From Convolutriloba macropyga (lineage: Eukaryota): DNA of 64,000 nt. The position numbers were made by a program, and so were the translations under genes. The DNA lies in the NCBI RefSeq assembly GCF_964194025.1, contig NC_134482.1:5642001-5706000 (forward strand). Reading direction: 5' to 3'. Position 1 is the first letter of the stretch, and every line of letters starts with the position of its first letter. The notes below the pieces were generated by a model that ran no database searches, was not told the origin of the DNA, and saw only the letters and a list, made by a program, of their open reading frames with translations. Shown piece by piece: positions 1 to 20,027 of the stretch.

Positions 1-1426
1 ACCCATTCTGCAATTCAAGAGCGTTCGGGTACATGGGGTTGCAATTAATCAGTGTGAAATTTCTATAGAATACTCTAGAAATGGGTTCCATGTATCTAAT
101 TACTTCTGAAGTGTTGTCAGAAAACACCCTAACTGGTACTTCCTCCGTACAAAACTGATTTTCGACAACATGTACGATTACTTTAGCGCACCTATGGACA
201 TATAGTATTCCTCCCGCTCTTTCTGCGTGTGTACCCAGAGCGTTTTGTTGACTTAAGAAAATTTGGTGTGAATTTCCGTTAATTGATGTCGTTAGAATCA
301 TAGCTCTGTGCAGTTTTTCTATGTGACAATTTAATAACTCTATTTCTTTCAGGTTTTCAAACATGCCTCGAAAATCCCACACAAAAAGTTGATCGAGTTT
401 TATGTCCCTGAGATCTGTCTCAGATATATCTGTTGTTGAAAAATTTTGTTCCGTGGCCGTCAACTTTTCCGTTGTATAAAACAAATTTCTGTGGTTTGTT
501 TCAAAAAGCAGAAAACTGTCTATATGTTTTGTCTTGTTTTTCAACTGGACAACTAATTTTCTTTTTCTGTCTAATTTGCTCGTCAAGTACTTTTTGTTTC
601 CAGCGCGGACTAGTTTTGCTGTTATCGAGTCTGAAAACTTAACGATCGTCAAGATGTTTGGTTTTTTGTCTTGGTCGAACAGATATTGTACTGAATCTAT
701 TTCAAATGTGTCTCCTTGATATAACAAGGTCTGCTCCTGTTTCAAAGGGTCTTTAAAATATAACCATGTTCCTTCATTTGCTTCCCTAGTTTCAATGAAC
801 AAAGTCCCCATGAAAATGTCTGCATTTATCATGATATTACCTTTCTGTGTTTCACCTTTTGGATTGATCCAATCCACGGGGTAGACATAATTCACTCCTT
901 TCTCATTTCCGCCTTTCATGAAAGTTTTTGATATCTTCTGAACAAATTCAGCGTCGGTTCGGTCAATATTCATCTCGTTGAGGACTTCTTTGGGAGCATT
1001 GAATTCAAAATCACCAAGACCCGGTAACCGCGTTTTGTGTCCCTGCCATAGATTTTGACAGACTGACTCTTTTATTGGGTAAAACGTTGGAATTATTTGT
1101 GATTTTTCGTTTAAGTAAGTTGCGTCGTCATACCAACTACTTTTTTTCAGCACAGTTACCGTATATGCAGCCCTGTACATGCAGTATTTTAGTTTACTCA
1201 TGCTGCTTTTGGCGTAGATCAGCCCTCCTTTGTTTACCTGCTCCTCATTTATATGTGACGTTTCACATTTTGTCGGTTCCGTCATTGCAAATTTTTGCGT
1301 CTGTAGAATGTTCTCAAAATCATAACCCACAATCTCCAGGGATTGTGAAAAACCTAATTTGCTAACCAACTGAAGAAGTTTCCAGTTCAACTGCACGATC
1401 CAATGTGGGTTCCACGCACTCTGCAT
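1..1426 (-). CDS. env: env-like class III viral fusion glycoprotein (chuvirus G / herpesvirus gB-like); runs off the window edge
   Basis: Manual translation: ATG at 1426 and 475 codons with no stop to position 2. Motifs LEIVGYD, ETNHRNL, LLNCHIEKLHRAMIL, AGGILYVHRCAKVIV...FCTEEVPV...YMEPISRVFYRNFTLINCNPMYP; sequons NKT, NFS, NTS, NFT. Confidence 0.8.
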   Translation of the reverse strand, partial: MQSAWNPHWIVQLNWKLLQLVSKLGFSQSLEIVGYDFENILQTQKFAMTEPTKCETSHINEEQVNKGGLIYAKSSMSKLKYCMYRAAYTVTVLKKSSWYDDATYLNEKSQIIPTFYPIKESVCQNLWQGHKTRLPGLGDFEFNAPKEVLNEMNIDRTDAEFVQKISKTFMKGGNEKGVNYVYPVDWINPKGETQKGNIMINADIFMGTLFIETREANEGTWLYFKDPLKQEQTLLYQGDTFEIDSVQYLFDQDKKPNILTIVKFSDSITAKLVRAGNKKYLTSKLDRKRKLVVQLKNKTKHIDSFLLFETNHRNLFYTTEKLTATEQNFSTTDISETDLRDIKLDQLFVWDFRGMFENLKEIELLNCHIEKLHRAMILTTSINGNSHQIFLSQQNALGTHAERAGGILYVHRCAKVIVHVVENQFCTEEVPVRVFSDNTSEVIRYMEPISRVFYRNFTLINCNPMYPNALELQNG

Positions 1427-1442
1427 TTTGTCGTATCACCTT

Positions 1443-2144
1443 TTAAAAAAATACATCATTATCAAATTTTTCATCTGAATCGTTATCCTTGAATAAAAAA
1501 TAGTCTTTCAGTTTCCGTGGTCTTGTTATTCCCGACGCACTTCTTGTCTGATATCGTCGTTCGGTGACATTTTGCGAAGTAGAAGCCGTGCTCCTATTTG
1601 GAAATTCTTCGCCTTCACTCCTTTCGGATGCTGACACCAGACTATCCCGCTTCTGCTGTGTGGCTACTTTGGGCGCAGGTATCTTTGTGCTTCTGCTCTT
1701 ATTGTTGGGGTTAGTATTTATTGATTCTCTTGTACTCCCACCCATAGGTGTTTGAAACGATTCGTCTTTGACTGTCTCATTGTGAGTTTCAGTATTAGGA
1801 TTAATTTGACTAATATTTCCTTCAGGTTGAACTTCTCTTCTTTCTGTGTCATTCTGTTTTGGGGTCACCACTTCAATTTCCACAAAATCATTGTCCTCCG
1901 TAAGGTTGTTTTGTGTTATTTTCGGTTCAATCTTTCCCTTCTTAGGTTCTTTTTTATCGGTGGTAGCACTTCTACTGTTAAAACGTTTGAGTCGATCGTA
2001 GTGGACCTTTTGTTGTTTTTTTGTTTTCACATCCTCAATAACAAAGTTCAGATCGTTTATTATTTCACGTATTACCTGCGGTCCGCTGTAAAAGGATTTA
2101 AATTTCTTTGTCTGGCCAGTTTTTATTGTGGGGTTGAACAACAT
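1443..2144 (-). pseudogene. Gypsy integrase C-terminus (GPY/F region) plus low-complexity tail; same frame as pol, separated by two TAA codons
   Basis: FYSGPQVIREIINDLNFVI...VHYDRLKRF; in frame with 2280..6149; stops at 2280-2282 and 2193-2195. Confidence 0.85.
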
Positions 2145-2279
2145 TACTAAATCACCTACTTCATATTGTGGTCCAAATGTGCTACGGTCATATTAGGTTT
2201 TTTGTCTTTGTTGCTCCACATCCATGCTTTCCCGTACCAGCTCATGGCACGTTTGTAGTTCATCTTTCAAGCAACGAAC

Positions 2280-5200
2280 TTAATCACTCAAAGTTGGGTA
2301 GATTTTGGTTTGTATTGTTTGATACATGCAATCAATCGGCAGCGCGCATGATCGTCCAAAAAGGAGGTAAAAGGGGCTGTACTTCGTAACAGAGTGAATT
2401 GATGATCTGTACGCCATCATTACTAGCGGAAGGTAGTCGCTCCAGGTGTTGTAATGTTCACCCACGTATTTTGCAAGACTCTCTTCGATTGTGCGATTGG
2501 TGCGCTCTATCATTGCGTTTCCTTGAGGGTGATAAGCTGTTGTTGAAGTCCTGTTAATTCCCAGCTCTTTACACATGTTCTTGAAAAGATTCGACATAAA
2601 ATTACTGCCCTTGTCGCTATGAAGATTTGCCGGACAACCAAACCTTGAAACCCATACATTTACAAAGGCCTTAGCGACCGTTGAAGCTTCTTGGTTGCTC
2701 ATGGGAATTGCTTCATACCATTTTGTAAATTGATCTCCAATTAACAGAATGTATTTGTTTCCGCTGGACTCGGGTAAAGGTCCCATAATGTCTAAGGCAA
2801 CTTGCCAGAACGGATGACTTGGTTTCCACGTTGTCAGACTGTGTATGTGTTTCTGGTGTGGAGATTTCTTTTGACAGCATTCTTCGCAAGAACTTACCCA
2901 CTCATGGACATCTTTTTTCATCCCGGGCCAGTAGAATCGTTCTCGAACCCGATCAAATGTCTTGGCCATACCAAAGTGTCCGCAATGTTCATGAAGGAAA
3001 GGTAGAATTTCTTTTAAAAGTGATCTCTGAATGACTATTTGTGTTAAGTTATTAATTTCGTCAATATGTTTCTGTCTCTTGATTAGATCATTTTCAATCC
3101 GTAAGTTTCTGAAATCAGTCCAAAGTTTCCACAGTGCCCTAGAGGCTCCTGCCATGTGTTTTCTTTGAGGGCGTTTCCCGTTCTCAATCCAGTTTCTCAG
3201 TATAATGAGGTCGGCTGCATTTTTCTGATGTTCAACTAGTTGTTCAACAGATTTCCCTAGTCCAATGGACCAGATATTTTTTTCTTCCGTATTTATTTGG
3301 TTCACTTGATTGCAGTCTTCGACTTGGTCTTCAGTCTGTGGAACTCTCGACAGACAGTCCGCGTGAGGGATCTTTTTTCCCGCTTCGTGTTTGATTTCAA
3401 AGTCAAACTGTCCGAGCTTTTCTATCCACCGGGCCAATAATCCGTCTGGTTCTTTAAAACTATATAACCACGTGAGGGCCCTATGGTCAGTAACAATTAA
3501 AAATTTTTGTCCAAGAAGATAATTTCTGAAGTGTTGAGTAAAATAAACTATTGCAAAAAGTTCTCGTTTTGTCGCAGAATAGTTTTGTTGACTTTTGCTG
3601 AGCGTTTTGCTTGCGTATGCAATAACTCTTTCACTCCATTGTTGTCTTTGGGAAATAATTGCGCCAATTCCAAACAAAGAGGCGTCGGTGGTTAACGTAT
3701 AGGGATCCGTGTCATTCGGATAACCCAAAATCGGTGCTTTCTGTAAAGCTTGTTTTAGTTGTTCAACTGCTGATTCGCATTCCTTGCTCCAAGTAAAACG
3801 TTCTTTTTTGTTTAATAGCTTATAAAGCGGCTCTGCTATTTTTCCGAAATCTTGTATGAATCTTCTGTAAAAGCCTACTAGTCCTAATATAGCTCTCAAT
3901 TCTTTTATTGTTCGTGGGCTTTTCATTTCACTGACTGCCGCTACTTTCTCCGGATCCACTTCTACGCCTTTATTTGATACAATGTGTCCCAGGAAATGAA
4001 TTTTTTCCTGAAAAAACCTGCATTTTGAGCCTTTTATTTTCAATCCAGCGTCTTTAAGTCGCCCAAGTACCAGATCTAGGCGCTTGAGATGCTCCTCAAA
4101 GGATCTACCGAAGATGATTATGTCATCCAGGTATACTAGAGCCACTTCATAGGAGAGTCCCGACATGATCAATTCCATTAAATTTTGAAAAGCTCCTGGC
4201 GCTGACGCCAAACCCATGGGTAGTCTCTTCCATTTGTAGAGTCCCATTGGAGTTACAAAGGCTGTCACGTTTTGTGACTCTTCATCGAGTGCCATTTGAA
4301 AATATCCCGATGTCAAATCGATATTGGAAAAGTAACAATTTCCATCTAGAGAATCAATAACGTCATTTATTCTTGGTAGCGGCCAACTGGTTTTCTTGAT
4401 TTGTTTATTCAAACCTCTGTAATCTACAACTAGTCTGTAGCTACCATCTTTCTTCTTCACCAATATTGATGGTGCTGCCCAATACGAATGGGTTGGTTCA
4501 ATTACTTTTGCATCCTCTAGATCTTCGACAATTTTTTTCATTGCTTTTCTTTTGTCAAAACTCATACTGCAATAACTTCTTCTGAACGGCTCTGCATCTT
4601 TGTTGAGTTTAATCTGGTGTTTAATTTTGTCACAATATCCTAAGTCATTTGAGTTTCGTGAGAAGACTTGTTGATGTCTCGTGAACAATTCTTGTACTTT
4701 CTCTTTCTGCTTGTCATTTAGTTTAGAACCTTCCAAGTTTGCGTGTTTTCCCATTTGAAAAATTTCTAATGTTTTTGGCTTATTTTGATTTGTGAAAATT
4801 CCATTCACAACTAAGTTCTGTTTGTTTTCAAAGTAAGTTCCCACTTTAGTGTTTTTATACACGGTTACTGGTGCGTCCGTTAGATTTAACACTTTTATCA
4901 AACTCCAACCATCTTCCATTGATATCATACAGGCGGCTAAAAACAAACCAGTCTTTACTTCAAAATCTCCAATTGCTTCCACTAATCCTTCCACTCCCGG
5001 AATTTCTTCTCCGTTTTCATCAGCTAATCTAATTTTGATTAGATTTTCGTTTTTACTCTGTATATAAGTGTTTTGTCCCGCAATTGCAAAAACTTGAACA
5101 CCTTGCGTTTTCTCTGTGGTGAGCGGTATTGAAACTTTAAAGTGACTGCTATATAGTTTCTCTTCGTGTAAGTTCAATACGCATTTATTGGTTTTCAGGA

Positions 5201-6149
5201 AATCAATTCCCAGTAGACATTCTATACCTTCGTCTGCCGTTATCACAAACTCTTGTTCGACCTCCGGTAGTCTTGGTTGCATCTGTACCAAAAGCGTTAC
5301 TCTGCCTATTATTTTGACAGCTGAGTTATTGGCTGTTAACACTCGTTTTGTGTATGTTTGTACAATTCCCGGTTTTCCCAGTTTTTCGTATGTGGACCAG
5401 CTCAAAAGCGATAAACTACTTCCACTGTCTATTAATCCAACGCATCTGTTCCCATGAAGTATGATTTCTGCGTTTAGACATTTAATTGTGTTTGTCGAAC
5501 AAACTCTAATGACATTGCAGTTCTCGGTGGTTTTCTTTTTAAAAGGGCAGTTTCTTTTCAAGTGTTGGGAACTTCCACATAGGAAACAATTTCGACAATT
5601 CCTCGAAAGGTGTCCTTCTTGTCCACAGGCTCTGCACTTGAAACCCTGCCTGTCGTTCCTCCTAGACGGTTCCTCTCTTCCAAAAGATCTGTCTCGGTGA
5701 CTAGGTCCTGGCGTTGGAAATCGCCGCCGATCTTTAAACCCACGATCTTGTTGCTGTCCTCTGTCACGTCTGTCGTCACCCCACCGTCCCCGGCAACCAC
5801 TTCGCTCCGTAGATTGGTTTCGACGGTTTTCTCGCTGTTTGTCATCTACTGACAATTGGTTCACAAGCTTGGTGACGGCCTCCACTAAATCTTTTGTTTC
5901 ATCTCGTCTAATTACCGCAACTTTTGGTGTTTGCTCTTCCTCCTCTATTCTTGTTACAGCTTCCAGATGCAATGCTCTTTCCAAAACTGTTTCAATTTTC
6001 ATATCCTTGTCGCCAATTTGCTTTCTTAGATCTGACCTCACCTGACTATGGTTGATTCCTTCTAGAAATCCTCTCAGAACGAGATGGTCTCTAATGTCTT
6101 GCGACTCCGTTGGGTAAGCTTTCAAAGCCAACTGCTTTAAATCTCCCAA
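2280..6149 (-). CDS. pol: Gypsy gag-pol polyprotein, main part: zinc knuckles, aspartic protease, RT, RNase H, integrase core
   Basis: CRACGQEGHLSRNC and CFLCGSSQHLKRNC; LIDSGS; YLDDII; TTDASLFGIGA / TDHRAL; HEHCGHFG...CEEC; DIMGP, SDKGSNF, ERTNRT. Confidence 0.97.
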   Translation of the reverse strand: MGDLKQLALKAYPTESQDIRDHLVLRGFLEGINHSQVRSDLRKQIGDKDMKIETVLERALHLEAVTRIEEEEQTPKVAVIRRDETKDLVEAVTKLVNQLSVDDKQRENRRNQSTERSGCRGRWGDDRRDRGQQQDRGFKDRRRFPTPGPSHRDRSFGREEPSRRNDRQGFKCRACGQEGHLSRNCRNCFLCGSSQHLKRNCPFKKKTTENCNVIRVCSTNTIKCLNAEIILHGNRCVGLIDSGSSLSLLSWSTYEKLGKPGIVQTYTKRVLTANNSAVKIIGRVTLLVQMQPRLPEVEQEFVITADEGIECLLGIDFLKTNKCVLNLHEEKLYSSHFKVSIPLTTEKTQGVQVFAIAGQNTYIQSKNENLIKIRLADENGEEIPGVEGLVEAIGDFEVKTGLFLAACMISMEDGWSLIKVLNLTDAPVTVYKNTKVGTYFENKQNLVVNGIFTNQNKPKTLEIFQMGKHANLEGSKLNDKQKEKVQELFTRHQQVFSRNSNDLGYCDKIKHQIKLNKDAEPFRRSYCSMSFDKRKAMKKIVEDLEDAKVIEPTHSYWAAPSILVKKKDGSYRLVVDYRGLNKQIKKTSWPLPRINDVIDSLDGNCYFSNIDLTSGYFQMALDEESQNVTAFVTPMGLYKWKRLPMGLASAPGAFQNLMELIMSGLSYEVALVYLDDIIIFGRSFEEHLKRLDLVLGRLKDAGLKIKGSKCRFFQEKIHFLGHIVSNKGVEVDPEKVAAVSEMKSPRTIKELRAILGLVGFYRRFIQDFGKIAEPLYKLLNKKERFTWSKECESAVEQLKQALQKAPILGYPNDTDPYTLTTDASLFGIGAIISQRQQWSERVIAYASKTLSKSQQNYSATKRELFAIVYFTQHFRNYLLGQKFLIVTDHRALTWLYSFKEPDGLLARWIEKLGQFDFEIKHEAGKKIPHADCLSRVPQTEDQVEDCNQVNQINTEEKNIWSIGLGKSVEQLVEHQKNAADLIILRNWIENGKRPQRKHMAGASRALWKLWTDFRNLRIENDLIKRQKHIDEINNLTQIVIQRSLLKEILPFLHEHCGHFGMAKTFDRVRERFYWPGMKKDVHEWVSSCEECCQKKSPHQKHIHSLTTWKPSHPFWQVALDIMGPLPESSGNKYILLIGDQFTKWYEAIPMSNQEASTVAKAFVNVWVSRFGCPANLHSDKGSNFMSNLFKNMCKELGINRTSTTAYHPQGNAMIERTNRTIEESLAKYVGEHYNTWSDYLPLVMMAYRSSIHSVTKYSPFYLLFGRSCALPIDCMYQTIQTKIYPTLSD

Positions 6150-6169
6150 AAAATCAGTCAGTTTTTCTC

Positions 6170-6478
6170 CTAGTCAGCTAGCCGTCCCCGGAAAACGACC
6201 GGTTTTTCGCTGTAGTGTTCTCGAAAAGCTTTAACGCATTCATCATAATTTTCTCGTGTAGCTTGCGGTAGAGTGCGATAGAACTCTATGGCAGATTTTT
6301 GTAGCCTAAGTGCAAAGTAATGCGGCCGTTCATCAACTTCGCGAGCCGGATCTCCTTCAGTTCTTTTCCACTTTTGTAGTTCCGCTAATAGCTCAAAATG
6401 CGTCACGTAACTTTCCAAGTCGTTTGAACCGGTAAATGCTTCCGGTAATAGCATTCTAGAGGTTGAGCCCGTTGCCAT
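6170..6478 (-). pseudogene. gag: Gypsy gag N-terminus, cut off from the rest of gag-pol by a small indel at ~6160-6180
   Basis: LPEAFTGSNDLESYVTHFE...VVFRGRLA; GEKLTDFLGDLKQLA then continues in the pol frame. Confidence 0.85.
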
Positions 6479-7515
6479 TTTATCGTTCCCCTACTTGTAT
6501 CGTGCCCTTTTAAAACTTTGTTAAGTTGTTGAAATTAATAGTTTCTATAAAAAAATTGTCAAGTAGATCGTCACCGGCAGGTGTTTTCTATTTTTAACGT
6601 CGAATTCTTGTAGCACTCTCTGTTTTTTTACTGTTTAAAAACTTTTCTCTATAAAAATCTAACGCTTATTTCAATACGGTATTTCTCTTTTTTTTATACT
6701 TATTTATTTATTCTACTTTATTTTTAAGGAAGTTTTAATTTACAGTTTTATAGACGACTGTCCCACCTGATTTCTGTTTTTTTTTAATATGATTTTGGCT
6801 GAACTTCGATTTTCCTTGTTTTATTGATGTTTTTAATATATTTTCTTTTCTATTTACGGCAAGGATGATATTAGGTGCTTTAGTTTTCTTTTAATTTCCC
6901 CTACTTATTGTTACCTGATCAACTTTTTTCGCTTTATATTCTCTTTTTTTTAATGGTAGTTTCAGAAAAAGTCAATATATAACTTTCAGCAACTGTTTCA
7001 ATTGATTCAACAAGGCGACTATCCCGCACTGTTTTTTTTGTTTTTTTTTCCAATGGTTATGCCGCTCGTTTTCTAGAACTCAACTTAGCAACTAAGGTCA
7101 AAAAAAATATTTCCTTGACTAATAGGAATTACGCAGTGGCGATCAGTTTCAATTACGAACGACAAAAACAAGAAAGAACCCTTTTTTTCTACTCACTTTG
7201 TATGATGCGGTCTTTCCTTTCAGAGAAGTTTCTGTCTCCACCAACGAGTAAAAGATAGCACCACGCGAGTAAATTCCCACTTGCTTTCCTGCGACTGATG
7301 TCCTGTGACTGATGTCCCCCGCTGTGGCTTCTGCAATTGACTCCCACACAAATTGGTGGAAATGGGTGGTAATTGAAGATTTGATATCCCAAATGTTTGT
7401 GTTAGTATTGAGAATAATTCGATTCTCGGAGTTTTTGGGGTTAAAGTGCTTTTTATTGGCGTCTCCCTACCGACAAATTTGTTAAAAATTTTAAAATGTT
7501 AACTTTCCTTTAAAT

Positions 7516-7526
7516 CTCTGTCGCCA
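7516..7526 (-). promoter_or_regulatory. Primer-binding site (TGGCGACAGAG), possibly for a tRNA-Ser
   Basis: Starts with TGG one nt after the LTR end CA; tRNA identity inferred from a 3' end of ...GUCGCCA. Confidence 0.75.
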
Positions 7527-7527
7527 G

Positions 7528-8129
7528 TGTAATATCCGTGCACTGTCAACGGTTACGGTTTGGGTTGGATGTTATTCCTAAGCACTTTAAACCTCGGAGT
7601 TACTGAGGAAAATTTTCCAAGTTTCAGACTTGAATTTAATGGAGCAAATGTAAAAGTTCAATCAGTTTAATGCAAAATTAGATCAATTGCTTGTAAATAT
7701 TAGAAGATTTGTGAAGATGAGAGATGTAGAGCAATTAAAGAGAGGCAGCTCGATTGTGTAAGGTTTAGGTTTGAATATGTTCTTTGGTTTCAGTCCTATC
7801 AATGGTTAATTATTCTTAGGTTATTTTTACCCATTTTCGTTAATCTCCGTGGGATTTTCTCATAGTTATTTTCTACCGCATGGGTCCCTGTTAGTTAAAC
7901 TAACAGATAACAGGTTTACCTGCTTTGACGAATCCCGTCATGAACCAACATTCCTTGACGTGTCCCGTCAAGGTTAAATTCTATGATGATTCCCATCATT
8001 ATTTATGATGCTTTCTCTATATTGTTAAAATCCGGTTTACTATTAGTAACCATCTCTTTTTGTTCTCCTTTTTGTTTATGAAAATTTCGCATTATGCGCT
8101 TAATATGTAATTTATGAGCATGTCATACA
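7528..8129 (-). repeat. 5' LTR of the Gypsy element (~600 bp)
   Basis: Minus strand reads TGTATGAC...GGATATTACA (TG..CA termini) next to the PBS. The outer edge is blurred by a 12-mer array and the partner LTR is not in the window. Confidence 0.7.
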
Positions 8130-8226
8130 TTATGGTTCACTATATGTCATACATTATGTCATACATTATGTCATACATTATGTCATACATTATGTCATAC
8201 TATGTCATACATTATGGTTCACTATA
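8120..8226. repeat. 12-bp tandem repeat (ATGTCATACATT)n at the LTR/flank junction
   Basis: Directly visible; bracketed by two copies of TGTCATACATTATGGTTCACTATA. Confidence 0.9.
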
Positions 8227-9240
8227 GACTGATACCGGCAAAATCTTAAATTTCCGTAGGTGTTCACCGTTACAACATAAGACAAAAATGTGATTCAAGG
8301 TACTGTAATCGGGAGATCTGGAGCAAAAATCAGTATCCAACTGAGTGGTCTTCCAGTATTGTTAATGAGACGTTGCATAAATTAGTCATGAAGGATAAGG
8401 TTACGGCAAAGCCCCCCAAAAATGAAAACATGTCAATTAAAAGGCTCAACAAAAAAACTTAAAACGATTTTTATTGTTCGGAACACAAAAAAAATCACTC
8501 AAACTTTTGCAAAGAGACTGAAAAAACTGTGTGATATGCAAATCATGTTCACAACGAAAAAATTAAAAACTTGCTTGCCCACCATGAAATCCTCTTTCGA
8601 TAAAAATCTGAAATTGCACATGGTATATAAAATTACATATAAAGGATCCAGTTCTATCTATGTAGCCCAAACCAGCCGACATGTTACCAATAGATTTTCG
8701 GAGCATCATAAGAAAGATTCTTCTGTGGGACAACAGCTCGTGGAATGTTGTGGTACAGCGCATAATTTTGAATCGGACATTCTAGATGCATGTTTCGGGG
8801 CTAAAGACCTAACAAAAATTGAAACGACCTACATCAAAAAGCCGAAACTGCAGCTAAATACGCGCGACGAGTAACGGGTATGGGAGTTGACATTGAAGGA
8901 ATAACTCAAATGCAAAAATCTGATTTTAACATTCAAAAATTATTCTGGTACATGTTAATCTGAAAATTGTCAACCCAAACAAACAGAGGATATTAACAGA
9001 TGGGAGTGAAAGTAAAAACTCTTTTTCAGGAATAGTTCGTTGAGTTCGTTGTTATTCAAACTCAACTCTTAGAGTTCAATAGATAGAGTCAAGACAAGTT
9101 TATATACTTTGTAAACACTTTTATTCAATAGTTCAACCTGAGGACGAAGGCAATGTTCGAAAACCTATTTTTAAAGAATCTTTTCGATTTTTAATGGACA
9201 ATTCTTTTCTCTGCGGTTAGTACTGAAATATGCAAACTTG
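8212..9240 (+). mobile_element. Penelope-like element remnant: RT C-terminus, GIY-YIG endonuclease, 3' region
   Basis: TDTGKILNFRRCSPLQHK at ~8228-8282; ORF 8422..8874 VYKITYKGSSSIYVAQTSRHVTNRFSEH...LQLNTRDE. Confidence 0.85.
9125..9175 (+). ncRNA. Degenerate minimal hammerhead ribozyme motif in the PLE 3' region
   Basis: CTGAGGA-C-GAA-ggcaatg-TTC-GAAA-ACCT; helix III palindrome and UH site are mutated relative to the 48.1-kb motif. Confidence 0.45.
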
Positions 9241-10399: not shown

Positions 10400-13300
10400 T
10401 GTCTGAATAACCAGGAAACCGCAACCAAAATGCTCAGCATTGAATGCAAAACATAAGCTTTTAAACAAAAACTCAGCCGTCTTTAGTTGCATATCTTGTG
10501 AAAAGGCCCTGCACATGACAACTAAATGGATCCAAATCAGCAAAGTGGTCATAGCTGCAATGGATGAAGTAAATGTTAACTTCCTTTTCTCTGCAATCAT
10601 TGCCGGCTGTCAAAAAATAGATATGGCTAATGTTGCAGTTAATCATCATCAAAGAAAAAAACAAGCCTGAACAGCCAAGAAGTTTGAGTACTGATTGAAA
10701 ATTTTGAAAAAAATATTGAAGAAAGTGGCGTTGGAAATGGGAAGATCAAATGCGCATCCATTCAAAAATAACAAGCGATTACCTGATGACAACAACGTGA
10801 GAGTCAGAATAGTCAAAGTAAAAAATGAGACCCGAGGAAAAGAAGGGAGTCAGACAGATCGGAAGTAAACTCACTGACAATGCTCTGATTAATGACTGTC
10901 GGAGAATTGATACCTATAAAAACAAATCTTGACCAATCCTAAAAACAACTCATCATCAGCTCGGAGAGACGGTTTTTGTCATTCTATCAAGTTTTTTCGA
11001 ACTATCACAAAAAGTGTACATAAGGGAATACAACACTACAAGAAAACCAATTAATCAAAATTTACTAAAAATGAGACTTGAATTGCTCCGAGCGGACAAC
11101 AGAAGCAGGAATGAAATCAAATTCAAAACGTTCAGGCTCTTCTGAAATTCAAAAACGGACCGTGTTCATGACTGAGAGCACACATTAAAAGGCATGAGCA
11201 AGCGTTATAGCAGAGTTTTTACTTCTAAGCTCCAAAGTATTTTAGAATTCTCGCGAAGATTCTCCGTGGCAGAATCCGTCCCTCTCAAAACTAACAGAAG
11301 TGTGATTTATATAGAGAGTCCAACATGAAGCTCTACTTCTAAAAGATTATAAAAAATGTTCGGCAAGAGAAAATCTTGACAATTTGTGTCTCAATTACTG
11401 TTAAAAACTTATGGCACAGGCCCTAAATATTAGACATTATTGTAAATAACATATACTCAAATATCAATACAACTGTTAATGATTATGTTCATAAACCACC
11501 AAAAAGCAGCCTTACAGATGGAATCTTGAAACATTCTATCACTCGCTGAATTAGCATCAAGTTGATTTAAATTTCTGGAAAGCAACGTAATCAGTGTTAG
11601 CGTTTTTATTGGTTTCACTTAATGAGCACTGACTGGAAAGCATTATACCTTGGAGATAACAACAAAAACTTTTGCCCAAATCTTCTAACTGAACAGAATT
11701 TCGAACAACTGTTTGATTGCAGAGTGCAAATTGGTAACACCAAACAAAAACCGTCTTTCTGCTTAGGTAACCCCAACCCTGATTAAAGTCCGCCGTTTAC
11801 AAGAAAGTTAAGCAATCAATACAAATATGGCCCAGAACAATCTCCATTTTAGGCAACCTTTTCTCGCTGTCGATAGAGTGTAAACCAATGAGCCGACAAA
11901 ATTTGCACTTAAAAAACTCAATTGGCAAATATGGATACAGTAATGTTGACGAGCTTTTAAGTCAGTGGTTTCAATGATTTTACCAAATTCTGAAGAAAAA
12001 TTTCTCCGAAGGTAAAAAGCAGAGAACAAACTTGCCGCCCTGGATAACGAAGGAAACATAAAGCTTCATTAGAAAGTTAGAAACAATAGAACGGAAAAAG
12101 AGAAAAAGAATATCAAGCAACTTATGCCAATATCATTAAGCTTCAAAATAAATAAAATACATAGCTTTAATGACCACTAACTGACCAAAATTTAGCAGTT
12201 GTCTACATAGGTTTACACCACGATAAATTTTTTGTTAATTTATCACTTAGCTTACGACGAATTAGCATCACGAATTATTAGACATCATCGCTAAACCTGG
12301 TACTAATAGAAAAAACGAGTCGAAATCAATAAAGTTTTTTTCTAGTGTTTGAATGTAACCAGCGGAGTCTGGCAAGGGTAACTAATTGGGCCACTACTTT
12401 TTGCTTATGTGAACGATCTACCAGAATTAATAGATCAAATTTTAACATTTTGTTGCGCCGACTACTAAGAATTGAACCTTTACAATTAAACCTGAATCTC
12501 CTAACTGAACATAATTTTGAACAACAACTCATCAATTTCAGAGAGCAAATGGGAAACAATAAACAAGTAGACGTATTTATCTTTATGGAACCCCAGTTCT
12601 GGATAGATTCTACTAATGACAGAAAGTTAAGCAAACAATTCAAAATGGCCAACTTTAGTCGCGATACAAAATATGTGCAGAAAAAAATTTTTGTCCATAA
12701 AATGTTAACCAATAAGGCTAAAAAATCGCATTCAATAAGACCGATTGAAAAAAGTAAAATGTTACATTAGTCGAAAAACCAATTCTACCATGTTGCTAGA
12801 AAAATGTAGACAGTCTTCACAGTCAGTGGTATCAATGTTATTACCAAATTCTTAACTAAAATGTTTCCAAATTTAAAAGGCTAAAACAAACTCGCCCCCT
12901 GGATAACAAAGTAAACATATAATTTTATTAGAAAGTTGGACACAAGACAACGGGAAACAAAAAAGAAAATTTGTCCAATATCATTCAGTTGTATGAATAA
13001 ATAACTAAAAAAAACAATAGAAGATCAGACTACATAGGAAAATGAAATGTTCCGCGCAAATAGGTTCAGTGAAGTCCAGAGGTTTTTAAGAAAAGTGAAG
13101 AAATTTGTAGATCATATTTTAACATTTCGTTGCGCCGACTACTAAGAATTGAACCTTTACAATTAAAGTTTTCTCAAAAATTATTTAAATAAATTGAGTA
13201 ATCGGTGCCTACAAAACCAGAAGTTTCTCTACGAATACAGACGTAGGATTGTTTATCTCAAGAAAAAAGAAAATATTGTAAACCCTTAAAAAATCCCAAA

Positions 13301-13560
13301 AAATTTTGATGCGATAGTCACAAAAACCTCACCTGAAGAGCAATTGAACATAGACGTTTCTTCAAGGCAATTGGAGCACTCTAATTATTGACAAAAAATA
13401 AAGCAACTAATACTTCTTTTGCTAACAAACAAACGCATAAAAATGCCATTTTGCACACCATATGTTGCATCATATGTCAAAAAAGTTTGCCAAATAAAAT
13501 TCGAAGTTAAAGGTCATCGAAAATTTTGATACAGACTGGGTTTGAGACTGGGAAGACTGA
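10400..13560 (+). mobile_element. Highly decayed CR1-like LINE fragments (ORF1-like, endonuclease and RT remnants)
   Basis: Paralogous to the better-preserved copy at 13620-16575: endonuclease tract YKPPK..Y.W, APWIT, GPLLF..YVNDLP, many stops and frameshifts. Confidence 0.55.
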
Positions 13561-13619
13561 TTAAAAGCCATGGAGAAATCTTAATTCTTAACTTTATTTT
13601 TGTTGTTCTTAGTATTTCG

Positions 13620-16575
13620 GAACTCACGTGAAGATACTCCCTTGCAAAATCTGTCCCAGATAAAACTACTTTGTTCTGCCTAAAAGAAGCTCGGCTTACA
13701 CTTTCTGTCCCGAACGAAGCTCTTCCTTTAAGTGGTCATAGAGTCTTTCGGCGAGACAAAATCTTTGTCAACAGGAGTCCAATGCATGGAGGCGTCTCAA
13801 TTGCTGTCAGTGAAACCATAAAGTCAAACAGCTCTTGCCCTTGTCCAAAACCTTAGACCCTATTGTAACTGACATATCCTCAACTATCACGTCAATTTTA
13901 ATTGCTTGCATTTAAAATCAACCAAAAAACATCCCTTACAGATGGAACCTGGACACATTCCATCACCCGCTAAATTAGCTTTCAAGCCGACTAACAATCA
14001 GAAAGTAACGCAACAGTCCTGACCAGTGACATTAGTGTCATGAGCACTGACTGGAATAAAATATAACCGCAAGTGAAATATAAAAAAGTTTTCCTGAATC
14101 TCCTAACTGAACATAATTTTGAACAACAACTCATCAATTTCAGAGAGCAAATGGGAAACAATAAACAAGTAGACGTATTTATCTTTATGGAACCCCAGTT
14201 CTGGATAGAGTATACTAATGACAGAAAGTTAAGCAAACAATTCAAAATGGCCAACTTTAGTCGCGATACAAAATATGTGCAGAAAAAAATTTTTGTCGAT
14301 AAAATGTTAACCAATAAGGCTAAAAAATCGCATTCAATAAGACCGATTGAAAAAAGTAAAATGTTACATTAGTCGAAAAACCAATTCTACCATGTTGCTA
14401 GAAAAATGTAGACAGTCATCACAGTCAGTGGTATCAATGTTATTACCAAATTCTTAACTAAAATGTTTCCAAATTTAAAAGGCTAAAACAAACTCGCCCC
14501 CTGGATAACAAAGTAAACATATAATTTTATTAGAAAGTTGGACACAAGACAACGGGAAACAAAAAAGAAAATTTGTCCAATATCACTCAGTTATATGAAT
14601 AAGAAACTAAAAAAATCAATAGAAGATCAGACTACATAGGAAACTGAAATGTTCCGCGCAAATAGGTTCAGTGAAGTGCAGAGGTTTTTAAGAAAAGTGA
14701 AGAAAGCGCCACCGAATTATAGTGAAATGTTTCGGGGGTCAAAACACAGCTTTGGACTGCTCAAACAAGCTCAGCTTTTCATCTATTTTTTTCAGAATGT
14801 ATCCCAAAAATTCTAATCGACGCCAATATAAACAATCCTAAAAACTATAAAACTAAATAATATATTATTCTGTTCGGGTGAACATACTAGCTTAGTTTTA
14901 CAAAAATTGGACATTATTAAAAGTGAATGTCTTGACAGAATGAGTTAATTGAGTAAATTGGTCTTGAATCAGCTATCCAACACGTCCAACATCTCACTGA
15001 GTTCAAGTTTTAAAACAAGCCTCAATAGAAGCAATTTTCTTGAGCATTGGAAAGTAAGCACTATCACACCAGCATGTAAAAATGAGAACAAGACCGCAAT
15101 CAAAAACTACCGGCCAACAATCTGCCCCTAATATCCATCTAAATCTCTGAAAATGTTATTTTCGACGGTCTCTTTTACTTTGTCCCAAAACAAATGCATG
15201 ATCCAAAGATCGGTTTCGGACCAAGCGATCGATATTACCCATTGTTTCTTTAAAAAATCTATAGTTCCAATGACCACTAACTGACCAAAAAACTAGAAGC
15301 TGTATACATAGACTTTCAGAGAGCCATAGACATAGTACACCACGATAATCTTATCATTAAATTGTCAACTCTTTGATTTGGTGAAAAAGTGTTAGAAAAC
15401 ATTAGACTATTGTACAAAAGAAAATGAGCACTCCCGAAATTACATTTTTTTCTTGTTTCTTGAAAGTAACATTTGGAATCCCAAAAGATCACTACTTGGG
15501 CAACTATTGTTTTTTGTTTATATGAATGATCTAACAGTATCAACAGAGCACTGTTTTACATATGGTTACGCCGCCTACTAGAAAATGATCATTAACAGAT
15601 ACAATAAGCTTTAGAATGACTTAAATAATTCAAACAGTTGGTTTCTACAAAATGACAAGTTCGATTACGCATACAAACGTAGGCTTCTACATCTCAAGAA
15701 AAAGGCGGCTATTGTAAACCAGTGATTAATCCAAAAAATATTGGTGCGATAGTCAAAGAACACATTACTTGAAGGGACAATGCACAATGTCTCTTAAAGG
15801 CAATTGAAACACTCTGGTATCTTCTTCAAGGCAATTCAAGTGGTATCTGAAAAAAATAAAGCAAGTTACACCTCAGTTCCTAATTAACTAAATGTCTAGA
15901 ATTGCCATGTTCTACAGCTTGTAACATAAGCAGATGGAGCTGGTACTCCAAAAAGGGCATTTTAGTCACCATAAAGAGATAACTAAAAACTCTCTGGTAA
16001 CCCTTGGTAACCCTATCTTTGGTAACCCTATCGACTACAAAAAATTAATTTTAGCCACTCAAATTTTATCTCGTGCTTTTTAATTAGAAATGCACAGTCT
16101 CCAAATTTGCTGTAATATGGGCGCCGCAGATTACGATATAGACGCAAAAAAGATCCTTCATATCATACACAAAACAAAACAAGGAATTAGACATGTCACA
16201 AGTGCCCATGTCACAAGTCACGATTATCGTAGCAAAAATTAATTTTTGTAAAAGCGATGAAAGGAACTGCATTGTAAGAACAAAAACCTTGTACAGCATT
16301 TTCGCCAGAACAACAGATTTGAAGACTAAGTCAAAAAATGAACGAATTAATAACCGCAACTTCAAAATTGTTATTGGACGACCCACACGCGTGGACAGAT
16401 TGCTGCCTCTGTAGTATCTGTAACACATTCCTAGCTCATTTAGCTGACAAAGGAGGTCGCGGAACACCCATGGATGTGTTTAAGAAGTCTTCCCTCTAAC
16501 TACTACTACTACTATTACTTCTACTGCTTCTACTACTACCACCAACACTACTACTATGAATTTACTACTACTTCT
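13620..16575 (+). mobile_element. Decayed CR1-like non-LTR retrotransposon ORF2 (APE + RT) with (ACT)n tail
   Basis: HRVFRRDK...HGGVSIAV (endonuclease); WKVSTITPACKNENKTAIKNYRP, Y.DF...H..L..KL (RT); TAC-repeat tail at 16498-16573. Confidence 0.75.
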
Positions 16576-19500
16576 GCTAAAATGAATATGTTTCACACGA
16601 AAATCAGTTACGCCTCTAACATTTGTTTTCCTCTGTGTAGCATTTGCAAAACTAATGCCAAAAAATTGCGCCATTGTATTTATCCATAAAAATTTTTTTT
16701 CATTGTTTTTATACATTTAGGAACTAAGAGGTAACCATTTTTTCTTCTTGATAGATTAGAAGAAGTTATAGAAAGACAGAAATCAGAGGCTCCTCGAATG
16801 TATAATAATTTTAAAACTCTTTGAAAAGTTAAGCAAGAAGTTCAATTTCAAAGCACTTTCCGTATAATTGAGCAAAAACGTCCGACAATAGGTTGAAATC
16901 AGCCTTTTCACTAAAAGAACATCCAGAGCACTGTCATGATGCACTCAACAACACAGATTGAATTCAAAGCCCTGAAACACCAACCACCTGTGTGAGTAAT
17001 TGACCGCAATTAATTTCTCTTTTTGAGCAATCACATAGTTCAAGAGGGAAAATACGCTTATTACAGTCAAAAATTTCTTGTCTACTGGAATTCTTCTCCT
17101 CGAGATGACGAAGCAGATAACCTGTACAATTAACCAGAATCCTGTGGAAGAATTAAAAAAGAAACAAAATTGGATAAGAATCAACGTAACCAAGTCAAAA
17201 GCGTTTTTGAACGAAGAAAGCTTGTTTCTTATGGACGTAGTTTATACGGACTTCTTATAATGGTGCTCAAGTTCGGCATTTTTCTACTGCAAAACCTGTT
17301 CATTAACACGTTGAGTTAATGTAATGTTGAAAAAAAACTGATCAACTGATTATGAAACATGTCAATAATATAGAACAATGTGAGATTGAGAAATCAAGAG
17401 TTCAATCCGTAGAGAATTGTGAAGAAAATGATTGAATACCCGACCTTCTGAAATTTCGATTTCCGGGTGTTTGCATTTTATTTAAGCAAGAGGTAAAAAA
17501 AATTTCAGTTTAAATTTAAAGTTTTAAAACAAGCCTCAATAGAAGCAATTTTCTTGAGCATTGGAAAGTAAGCACTATCACACCAGCATGTAAAAATGAG
17601 AACAAGACCGCAATCAAAAACTACCGGCCAACAATCTGCCCCTTATATCCAACTAAATTCTAAATCTCTGAAACTGTTATTTTCGACGGTCTCTTTTACT
17701 TTTTCCCAAAACAAATGCATGATCCACAGATCGGTTTCGTACCAAGCGATCAATATTACCCATTGTTCCTTAAAAAATCTATAGCTCCAGTGACCACTAA
17801 CTGACCAAAAAACTAGAAGTTGTCTACATAGGATTTCAGAGACCTATAGACATAGTACACCACAATAATCTTATCATTAAATTGTCAACTCTTGGATTTG
17901 GTGAAAAAGTGTTAGAAAAAATTAGACTATTGTACTAAAGAAAATCAGCATTCCCGAAATTATTGTTTTTGTTGTTTCTTGAAAGTAACAATTGGAATCC
18001 CAAAAAATCACTACTTGGGCAACTATTATTTGTTGTTTATATGAATGATCTAACAGTATCAACAGATCACTGTTTTACATATGGTTACGCCGCCTACTAG
18101 AAAATGATCATTAACAGATACAATAAGCTTTAGAATGACTTAAATAATTCAAACAGTTGGTTTCTACAAAATGACAAGTTCGATTACGCATACAAACGTA
18201 GGCTTCTACATCTCAAGAAAAAGGCGGCTATTGTAAACCGGTGAATAATCCAAAAAATATTGGTGCGATAGTCAAAGAACACATTACTTGAAGGGACAAT
18301 GCACAATGTCTCTTAAAGGCAATTGAAACACTCTGCTATCTTCTTCAAGGCAATTCAGGTGGTATCTGAAAAAAATAAAGCAAGTTACACCTCAGTTCCT
18401 AATTAACTAAATGCCTAGGATTGCCATGTTCTACACCTTGTAACATAAGCAGATGGAGCTGGTACTCCAAAAAGGGCATTTTAGTCACCATAAAGAGATA
18501 ACTAAAAACTCTCTGGTAACCCTTGGTAACCCTATCTTTGGTAACCCTATCGACTACAAAAAATCAATTTTAGCCCCTCAAATTTTATCTCGTGCTTTTT
18601 AATTAGAAATGCACAGTCTCCAAATTTGTTGTAATATGGGCGCCGCAGATTACGATATAGACGCAAAAAAGATCCTTCATATCATACACAAAACAAAACA
18701 AGGAATTAGACATGTCACAAGTGCGCATGTCACAAGTCACGATTATCGTAGCAAAAATTAATTTTTGTAAAAGCGATGAAAGGAACTGCATTGTAAGAAC
18801 AAAAACCTTGTACAGCATTTTCGCCAGAACAACAGATTTGAAGACTAAGTCAAAAAATGAACGAATTAGTAACCGCAACTTCAAAATTGTTATTGGACGA
18901 CCCACACGGGTGGACAGATTGCTGCCTCTGTACTATCTGTAACACATTCCTAGCTCATTTAGCTGACAAAGGAGGTCGCGGAACACCCATGGATGTGTTT
19001 AAGAAGTCTTCCCTCTTACTACTACTACTACTATTACTTCTTTTGCTGCTACTACTACCACCAACACTACTACTATAAATTTACTACTACTTCTGCTAAA
19101 TTGAATATGTTTCACACGAAAATCAGTTACGCCTCTAACATTTGTTTTCCTCTGTGTAGCATTTGCAAAAGTAATGCCAAAAAATTGCGCCACTGTATTT
19201 ATCCATAAAAAGATTTTGTAGTTTTTATACATTTAAGAACTAAGTGGTAACCAATTTTTCTTCTTGATAGATTAGAAGAAGTTATAGAAAGACAGAAATC
19301 AGAGGCTCCTCGAATGTATAATAATTTTAAAACTCTTTGAAAAGTTAAGCAAGAAGTTCAATTTCAAAGCACTTTCCGTATAATTGAGCAAAAACGTCCG
19401 ACAATAAGTTGAAATCAGCCTTTTCACTAAAAGAACATCCAGAGCACTGTCATGATGCACTCAACAACACAGATTGAATTCAAAGCCCTGAAACACCAAC

Positions 19501-20027
19501 CACCTGTGTGAGTAATTGACCGCAATTAATTTCTCTTTTTGAGCAATCACATAGTTCAAGAGGGAAAATACGCTTATTACAGTCAAAAATTTCCTGTCTA
19601 CTGGAATTCTTCTCCTCGAGATGACGAAGCAGATAACCTGTACAATTAACCAGAATCCTGCGGAAGAATTAAAAAAGAAACAAAATTGGATAAGAATCAA
19701 CGTAACCAAGTCAAAAGCGTTTTTGAACGAAGAAAGCTTGTTTCTTATGGACGTAGTTTATACGGACCTTCTTATAATGGTGCTCAAGTTCGGCATTTTT
19801 GTACTGCAAAACCTGTTCATTACCACGTTGAGTTAATGTAATGTTGAAAAAACTGATCAACTGATTATGAAACGTGTCAATAATATAGAACAATGTGAGA
19901 TTGAGAAATCAAGAGTTCAATCCGTAGAGAATTGTGAAGAAAATGATTGAATACCCGACCTTCTGAAATTTCGATTTCCGGGTGTTTGCATTTTATTTAA
20001 GCAAGAGGTAAAAAAAATTTCAGTTTA
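15005..20027. repeat. ~2.5-kb tandem duplication inside copy 1 (15005-17511 / 17519-20027)
   Basis: Near-identical repeat of the CR1 3' half, its tail and the downstream flank. Confidence 0.92.

Follow-up and report, generated by a model that had tools for sequence, protein, structure and literature searches.

A Ty3/gypsy retroelement of Convolutriloba macropyga with a predicted class III envelope gene followed by a J-domain gene

A 64,000-nucleotide stretch of Convolutriloba macropyga DNA (NC_134482.1, positions 5,642,001 to 5,706,000; hereafter the window) harbors, on its minus strand, most of a 10.3 kb Ty3/gypsy element that runs on past its left edge and in which gag-pol, env and a fourth gene, ORF4, lie between two long terminal repeats (LTRs). 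The env gene is of an already published kind; the new part is the gag-pol-env-J layout, in which a gene for a DnaJ J-domain stands behind env. We think it probable that the predicted Env fuses membranes to move particles between cells and that ORF4, as a co-chaperone, directs Hsp70 to whatever complex its barrel binds. We also lean, by a smaller measure, towards the wider proposal that this enveloped Ty3/gypsy lineage may be a complex retrovirus-like agent whose spliced fourth gene supplies it with a functional Hsp70 co-chaperone; it would have reached the T-antigen strategy independently and would use it in assembling or stripping particles or in taking host silencing complexes apart. By itself, env extends to a further host a type of element first described in 2026. 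ORF4 is of greater weight: if it works, its one 70-residue domain would help to pin down the step at which retroelement replication or counter-defence depends on Hsp70. Accessory genes downstream of env, which characterise complex vertebrate retroviruses, would then also have arisen in invertebrate gypsy lineages.

The 5′ LTR was located at window positions 7528..8226 (minus strand), with a 617-bp core at 7528-8144 (TA...CA). Its first bases recur in tandem as far as 8226, and 12-bp tandem repeats made from them span 8120-8237. When these repeats are taken into account, a 4-bp target-site duplication at 8227-8230 has its counterpart beyond the 3′ LTR; amongst five sister loci, such a duplication was clear in three, likely in one and absent from one. 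The primer-binding site (7515..7526, minus strand) consists of 12 nt complementary to the 3′ end, with its added CCA, of a host tRNA-Ser(GCT). Genes for this tRNA, the predicted primer of the element, form tandem arrays on two other contigs (L213, L214). A preliminary description of the window had expected a polypurine tract and a 3′ LTR to the left of it, and both were found there (L013:5833-6471, minus strand, ~1530-2170 bases left of window base 1), placing env inside the LTRs. The two LTRs are 97.9% identical, with 10 mismatches and one gap.

The gag-pol region (1443..6478, minus strand) encodes CCHC zinc knuckles, protease, reverse transcriptase (RT), RNase H and integrase in the Ty3/gypsy order. 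Amongst solved structures, pol matched Ty3 Gag-Pol best (E=4e-112; third entry, 5e-51), and no BEL/Pao-type Pfam domains were listed for it. By domain order, closeness of pol to Ty3, LTRs, primer site, polypurine tract and target-site duplication, the element is assigned to Ty3/gypsy (Metaviridae), the backbone named in the preliminary description. In the window copy, gag-pol is broken: the frame shifts once within gag, and the integrase region contains two in-frame stops, so that this copy is not self-sufficient. Both this interruption and the presence of a fourth ORF after env escaped the preliminary description. One of the five sister copies examined carries gag-pol as one continuous 1682-codon frame.

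The env gene opens at an ATG at position 1426 and runs on the minus strand, free of stops, for 475 codons to the window edge (1..1426), as previously described. When the neighboring stretch to the left was read, the frame was found to continue for a further 635 bases, giving a complete gene of 686 amino acids (L013:7366-9426). The distance from the pol-frame stop to this ATG, earlier put at 17 nt, is correct if counted base to base, although 16 bases actually intervene. All of the motifs previously quoted (SQS-LEIVGYDF, NCHIEKL, AGGILYVHRC, CTEEVPV, MEPISRV and INCNPMYP) are in the frame, as are the four N-glycosylation sequons, which lie wholly within the window at residues 297, 328, 438 and 456 and number six over the entire ORF. 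The signal-like N-terminus is likewise present as a region, but in the window copy its hydrophobicity is mild (11-residue mean ≤1.16 at the positions computed). A membrane anchor had been predicted for the missing C-terminus, and the extended frame has a hydrophobic stretch near 587-611, with a peak 19-residue hydropathy of 2.18 at residue 587, followed by a tail of ~70 amino acids. Env was rightly called Cys-poor: it has nine Cys, seven of them in the ectodomain, compared with 15-21 in another env lineage of the same genome that matches PF24664. A search of env for a furin-type R-x-K/R-R site found none.

Env scored well over the cut-off of 27 against the Pfam profile PF24664, the Monjiviricetes fusion glycoprotein (E=1.4e-14, 53.5 bits), and it is because of this score that we do not regard the frame as a chance one. 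A monomer model was built from a 54-row alignment (mean pLDDT 63, pTM 0.45, with 258 residues below pLDDT 50 and the C-terminal ectodomain at low confidence). Its best match amongst PDB folds was herpes simplex virus gB (E=1.4e-7), and the matches listed were all herpesvirus gB, thogotovirus-type glycoproteins or baculovirus GP64. The superposition on gB (Z=8.3) covered 270 residues within 46-386 at an rmsd of 16.1; the alignment with gB extends over residues 45-393, with a central helix at 352-383. Query TM-scores against solved structures did not exceed 0.17; these low global values probably arise because the domains of the model are placed unlike those in either solved state. The best matches in BFVD, reaching E=2.7e-17, were chu-, xinmo- and qin-like glycoproteins. 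The env profile retrieved no PDB sequence at E≤10, and gB was reached by fold comparison alone. Searching for homologues of env by a word-based method gave 6 matches and an exhaustive search gave 416 at E≤0.001, amongst the best 150 of which the distant ones were 25-32% identical. The assignment of env to class III, as a gB/chuvirus-G-like fusion glycoprotein and predicted fusogen, rests on profile and local fold agreeing rather than on a full overlay, and agrees with what the preliminary description had proposed.

Genome-wide, the N-terminus of env gave at least 132 matches (131 of 1788 candidates scored), and six of the 12 best copies had a full open env frame. All five sister loci were collinear with the window element, env included, at 97.7-98.6% identity, and the four sister LTR pairs measured were 95.0-99.8% identical; the element has recently multiplied within this genome. 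ORF4 gave 138 matches, with 24 of the 30 best free of stops. Two further families, B and C, share 73-77% identity in RT with family A, to which the window element belongs, and 27-32% in ORF4; their env identity to family A is 38% and 31%, respectively. Amongst the loci listed, ORF4 lay behind env at all three further family B loci and all five further family C loci, and it was found within an LTR pair at one family B and three family C loci. One rearranged family C contig has its J part inverted. In family C, the gap between env and ORF4 (L131:610-880) holds tandem repeats of ~40 bp, each with a short palindrome, as seen in four copies of this family. At G000:C10:58952879-58969686 (L038, L039, L041, L044, L049), a tandem array has a period of 1832 bp, comprising the end of env, ORF4 and part of the LTR, and its ORF4 units are mostly open. 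In contig sets labelled as two other organisms, env, ORF4 and pol were covered in short pieces (30/30 and 29/30 bins).

An account of 1512 env-carrying gypsy elements in animals (Chary and Hayashi, eLife 2026, PMC13524379) states, in the sections drawn on here, that F-type and gB-type env genes are equally widespread in gypsy elements, and describes the gB type as ancient and similar to chuvirus glycoproteins. The preliminary description had treated a class III env on a gypsy backbone as unusual, a view not supported by those sections, in which gB-type env is reported in gypsy elements across many animal phyla. The present element resembles the gB-type "ancient errantiviruses", as characterized there, in its Ty3/gypsy pol, gag-pol-env order, multiple copies, LTRs and tRNA primer site, and also in having a signal region and an anchor; the furin site lacking here is not always kept there. 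On the basis of an env downstream of pol inside the LTRs, copy number, profile and fold, a weak signal region and an anchor, it can provisionally be classed with them. It differs from the elements described in those sections in its J-domain fourth gene and in having only seven ectodomain Cys. Within the parts of the report available, Xenacoelomorpha is absent from the genome groups and from the text and supplements; a J-domain, DnaJ or chaperone gene is not mentioned in the main text, nor do DnaJ, Hsp40, ORF4 or Tudor occur in the text supplements. A chuvirus-like glycoprotein in the env position is also found in Anakin of mosquitoes, which, in the part of that study used here, has a BEL/Pao backbone (Dezordi et al., 2020, PMC7642597), whereas the present pol is Ty3-like and lacks the domains expected of BEL/Pao.

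It had further been proposed that env was captured independently, and a fairly recent capture from a chuvirus-like RNA virus would fit both the chu-, xinmo- and qin-like identity of its best viral fold matches and the absence of any BLAST match at E<0.001 between family A env and the second env lineage of the genome. We nevertheless consider such a capture unlikely, given that env is just 12-16% identical to its ten best viral fold matches (BFVD), that env divergence tracks pol divergence within the genome, and that the sections of PMC13524379 drawn on argue for an ancient origin and vertical descent of gB-type env, leaving independent capture unsupported.

ORF4 encodes 280 amino acids and lies outside the window, ~660-1500 bases left of its first base (L013:6501-7343 = G000:C16:5640501-5641343, minus strand). 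It starts 22 bases past the env stop and ends 54 bases short of the 3′ LTR. Its layout comprises a Tudor/SH3-like barrel (residues 1-50), a coiled coil (~59-197) and a DnaJ J-domain with an HPD motif (205-263), here in the form HPDKGG, which is also the J-domain loop of T antigens. The match to PF00226 (DnaJ) was strong (E=2.9e-12), and the ORF4 proteins of families B and C also scored above the DnaJ cut-off. In family C, most copies lack an in-frame ATG upstream of the point where the conserved barrel begins. In a structural model (pLDDT 83), residues 1-50 form a small beta barrel and residues 84-197 one long helix, and the J part adopts a helical fold whose helices II and III flank the HPD motif; on these features, ORF4 is a predicted class C J-domain protein. 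Neither a signal peptide nor a membrane anchor was found in ORF4.

In a midpoint-rooted tree that also held 15 other J-domains from the assembly, five element J-domains grouped in a single clade (support 100/97); of the 18 best J matches outside the elements, three were left out as partial or duplicate. Since the element J-domains group in this way, one acquisition likely predates the family split. Two DnaJ genes on small contigs (L184, L185) do not resemble the rest of the animal's genes and may belong to an organism associated with it. Relatives of ORF4 outside families A-C were not recognised amongst 117 matches, nor amongst the best 120 of 201, and none were found in phage records or JGI metagenomes. 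An Atlas search with the barrel returned nothing, and one with the J-domain returned generic eukaryotic DnaJ clusters only.

The J-domains have evolved fast, with 34-39% identity between families, and by eye their helix II seems to have fewer basic residues than that of the host J-domains in the alignment. Both observations would suit a decoy that binds or titrates Hsp70 or host J proteins but does not drive a productive cycle, thereby damping chaperone-dependent defence. All three families, however, retain the HPD motif, which is present in 23 of 25 family A copies, and the modelled J-domain overlays those of Sis1 and ERdj5 at 2.0-2.7 Å; a decoy role appears distinctly improbable to us. We prefer the view that ORF4 is a working co-chaperone, which likely recruits host Hsp70, by analogy with the polyomavirus T antigens.

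The folds closest to the barrel amongst solved structures included Tudor domains (SMN, TDRD3, TDRD1), PWWP, KOW and SH3, all of them weak matches (Foldseek E≥0.017; Z of 7-8, the range of common folds), and none of the five ORF4 barrels tested matched Pfam Tudor. The T antigen uses Hsp70 to take Rb-E2F apart, and an anti-silencing factor might work similarly: with a Tudor-like barrel docked on chromatin proteins or on PIWI/Argonaute in methylated form, the J-domain would bring Hsp70 to dismantle the complex. As a target for ORF4, such a host silencing complex is the chief competitor, and the nearest folds, including Tudor and PWWP domains, point in this direction, as does published work, in the portions seen, linking Hsp90/Hsp70 to piRNA silencing. 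Against it, the Tudor matches are weak and shared with SH3 and KOW folds, and the barrel bears a likeness, itself weak, to the C-terminal SH3 domain of the element's own integrase (E=0.02, above 40 of 40 column shuffles; E=0.23 for ORF4 against the integrase tail of the window copy), which points instead to a duplicated DNA- or integrase-binding module. Anti-silencing is thus possible but rather doubtful. Our tentative choice of target, held with less than even confidence, is the element's own particle or integration complex, at assembly or uncoating.

Selection was examined by comparing nonsynonymous to synonymous (N:S) counts of variants common to at least three copies with those of variants private to one copy. 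Private variants, which arise after insertion, were close to neutrality: omega for whole genes ranged from 0.6-1.5 with the gene and with the weight given to transitions. Shared variants, which mostly date from replication, gave an omega of 0.15-0.41 in env and ORF4. For ORF4, the contrast was 9:16 shared against 133:53 private in family A (p=0.001; 25 copies, after five tandem duplicates of 30 loci were left out) and 13:16 against 227:60 in family B (p=0.00015; 15 copies). For env residues 201-686, it was 20:23 against 196:66 (p=0.0004; 21 of 25 loci). Three contrasts fell short of significance: full-length env in 14 copies (14:13 against 173:74, p=0.08), the J region taken by itself (2:5 against 31:17, p=0.10) and env of family C (p=0.2). 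The gag control, with eight shared variants (5:3, p=1), was too small to be informative. Recurrent mutation and segmental duplication may enlarge the shared class, and would be expected to weaken rather than create the contrast. These data argue for purifying selection on both env and ORF4.

The same data bear on the idea that ORF4 is a neutral host fragment and env the decaying relic of an element that is now intracellular only. The near-neutral private variants and the many copies with stops are what it would predict, but the low omega of shared variants largely refutes it, and ORF4 retains an open frame and the same three domains in three families despite their divergence, with the J-domains in one clade. 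We regard it as very improbable.

Expression of the downstream genes may involve splicing. A predicted donor, GTGAGTA, lies in the leader at 7190..7196 (minus strand); its GT is kept in 30/30 leader loci and GTGAG in 29/30, and the heptamer occurs once in the leader of each of families A, B and C (expected 0.03-0.07 each). A predicted acceptor, a T-run followed by AG, lies at the pol/env junction (1436..1450, minus strand), with the AG kept in all 14 family A copies. An AG after a T-rich run also precedes the ORF4 ATG and is kept in 26/26 family A copies, and the same arrangement was seen for env and ORF4 in families B and C. No spliced retro-copies were present at 30 leader loci, and none of the 15 joints listed of 316 (four contig sets) was a leader-to-env or leader-to-ORF4 joint. 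From the conserved sites, we infer that env and ORF4 would be made from spliced RNAs joining the leader donor to the acceptor before each gene.

Retroviruses and retrotransposons borrow host chaperones, and a J-domain with Hsp70 is a textbook pair. In the mechanism that we propose, Env would trimerise in the membrane and let particles pass between cells, most likely from soma to germ line as in fly errantiviruses. Because it has no signal peptide or membrane anchor, ORF4 would act in the cytosol or nucleus, where the barrel would bind the target, the coil would oligomerise and the HPD loop would trigger host Hsp70. Virus-encoded J-domain proteins include polyomavirus T antigens and those of molluscum contagiosum virus and phage RB43 (Rki), according to the portion of a review used here (PMC3486835). 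As in these, a mobile genome here encodes its own J-domain with HPD; the likeness was compared for the J-domain only, and the viral proteins covered in that portion occur in DNA viruses and phages, whereas ORF4 belongs to an LTR retroelement and has its J-domain C-terminal to a barrel and coiled coil. Bdelloid rotifer LTR elements similarly carry captured non-env genes downstream of pol, encoding GDSL esterase, DEDDy nuclease, coiled-coil and TM proteins that are described as typically expressed from spliced messages; the main text of that study does not mention DnaJ, and in the passages used here these ORFs stand at the ORF3 position and not behind env (PMC5408684). In the open literature, which the search covered, we found no published report of an LTR retroelement with a J-domain gene.

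The second gypsy lineage with a PF24664 env in this genome is distant (99 matches; 29-30% identical in RT). Its members (L095:3565-4527, L099:1116-2951, L240-L247) have an env of 769-898 amino acids and a large 3′ ORF of 320-611 amino acids, with other shorter ORFs, some Cys-rich, between the two. The large ORF (150 matches, 150 scored) combines a coiled coil with a beta-rich block that is conserved; it lacks a J-domain, and its Pfam matches were uninformative or absent. By eye, the ORF4 barrel could plausibly be a homologue of this accessory ORF; the likeness was not supported, 27 of 40 shuffles scoring as high.

In the neighborhood of the window element, a host gene with an RGS domain (PF00615, E=1e-24; L013:4079-5161, minus strand), which we take to be Axin-like, starts ~670 bases beyond the 3′ LTR and is read from the same strand, so that its expression could be influenced by the LTR. 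Within the window, a 160-amino-acid frame at 8392-8874 has what we take to be a GIY-YIG-like look and is perhaps a Penelope-type remnant. Larger direct repeats, with periods of ~1.6 and 2.5 kb and unrelated to the element, occupy positions 11600-20000.
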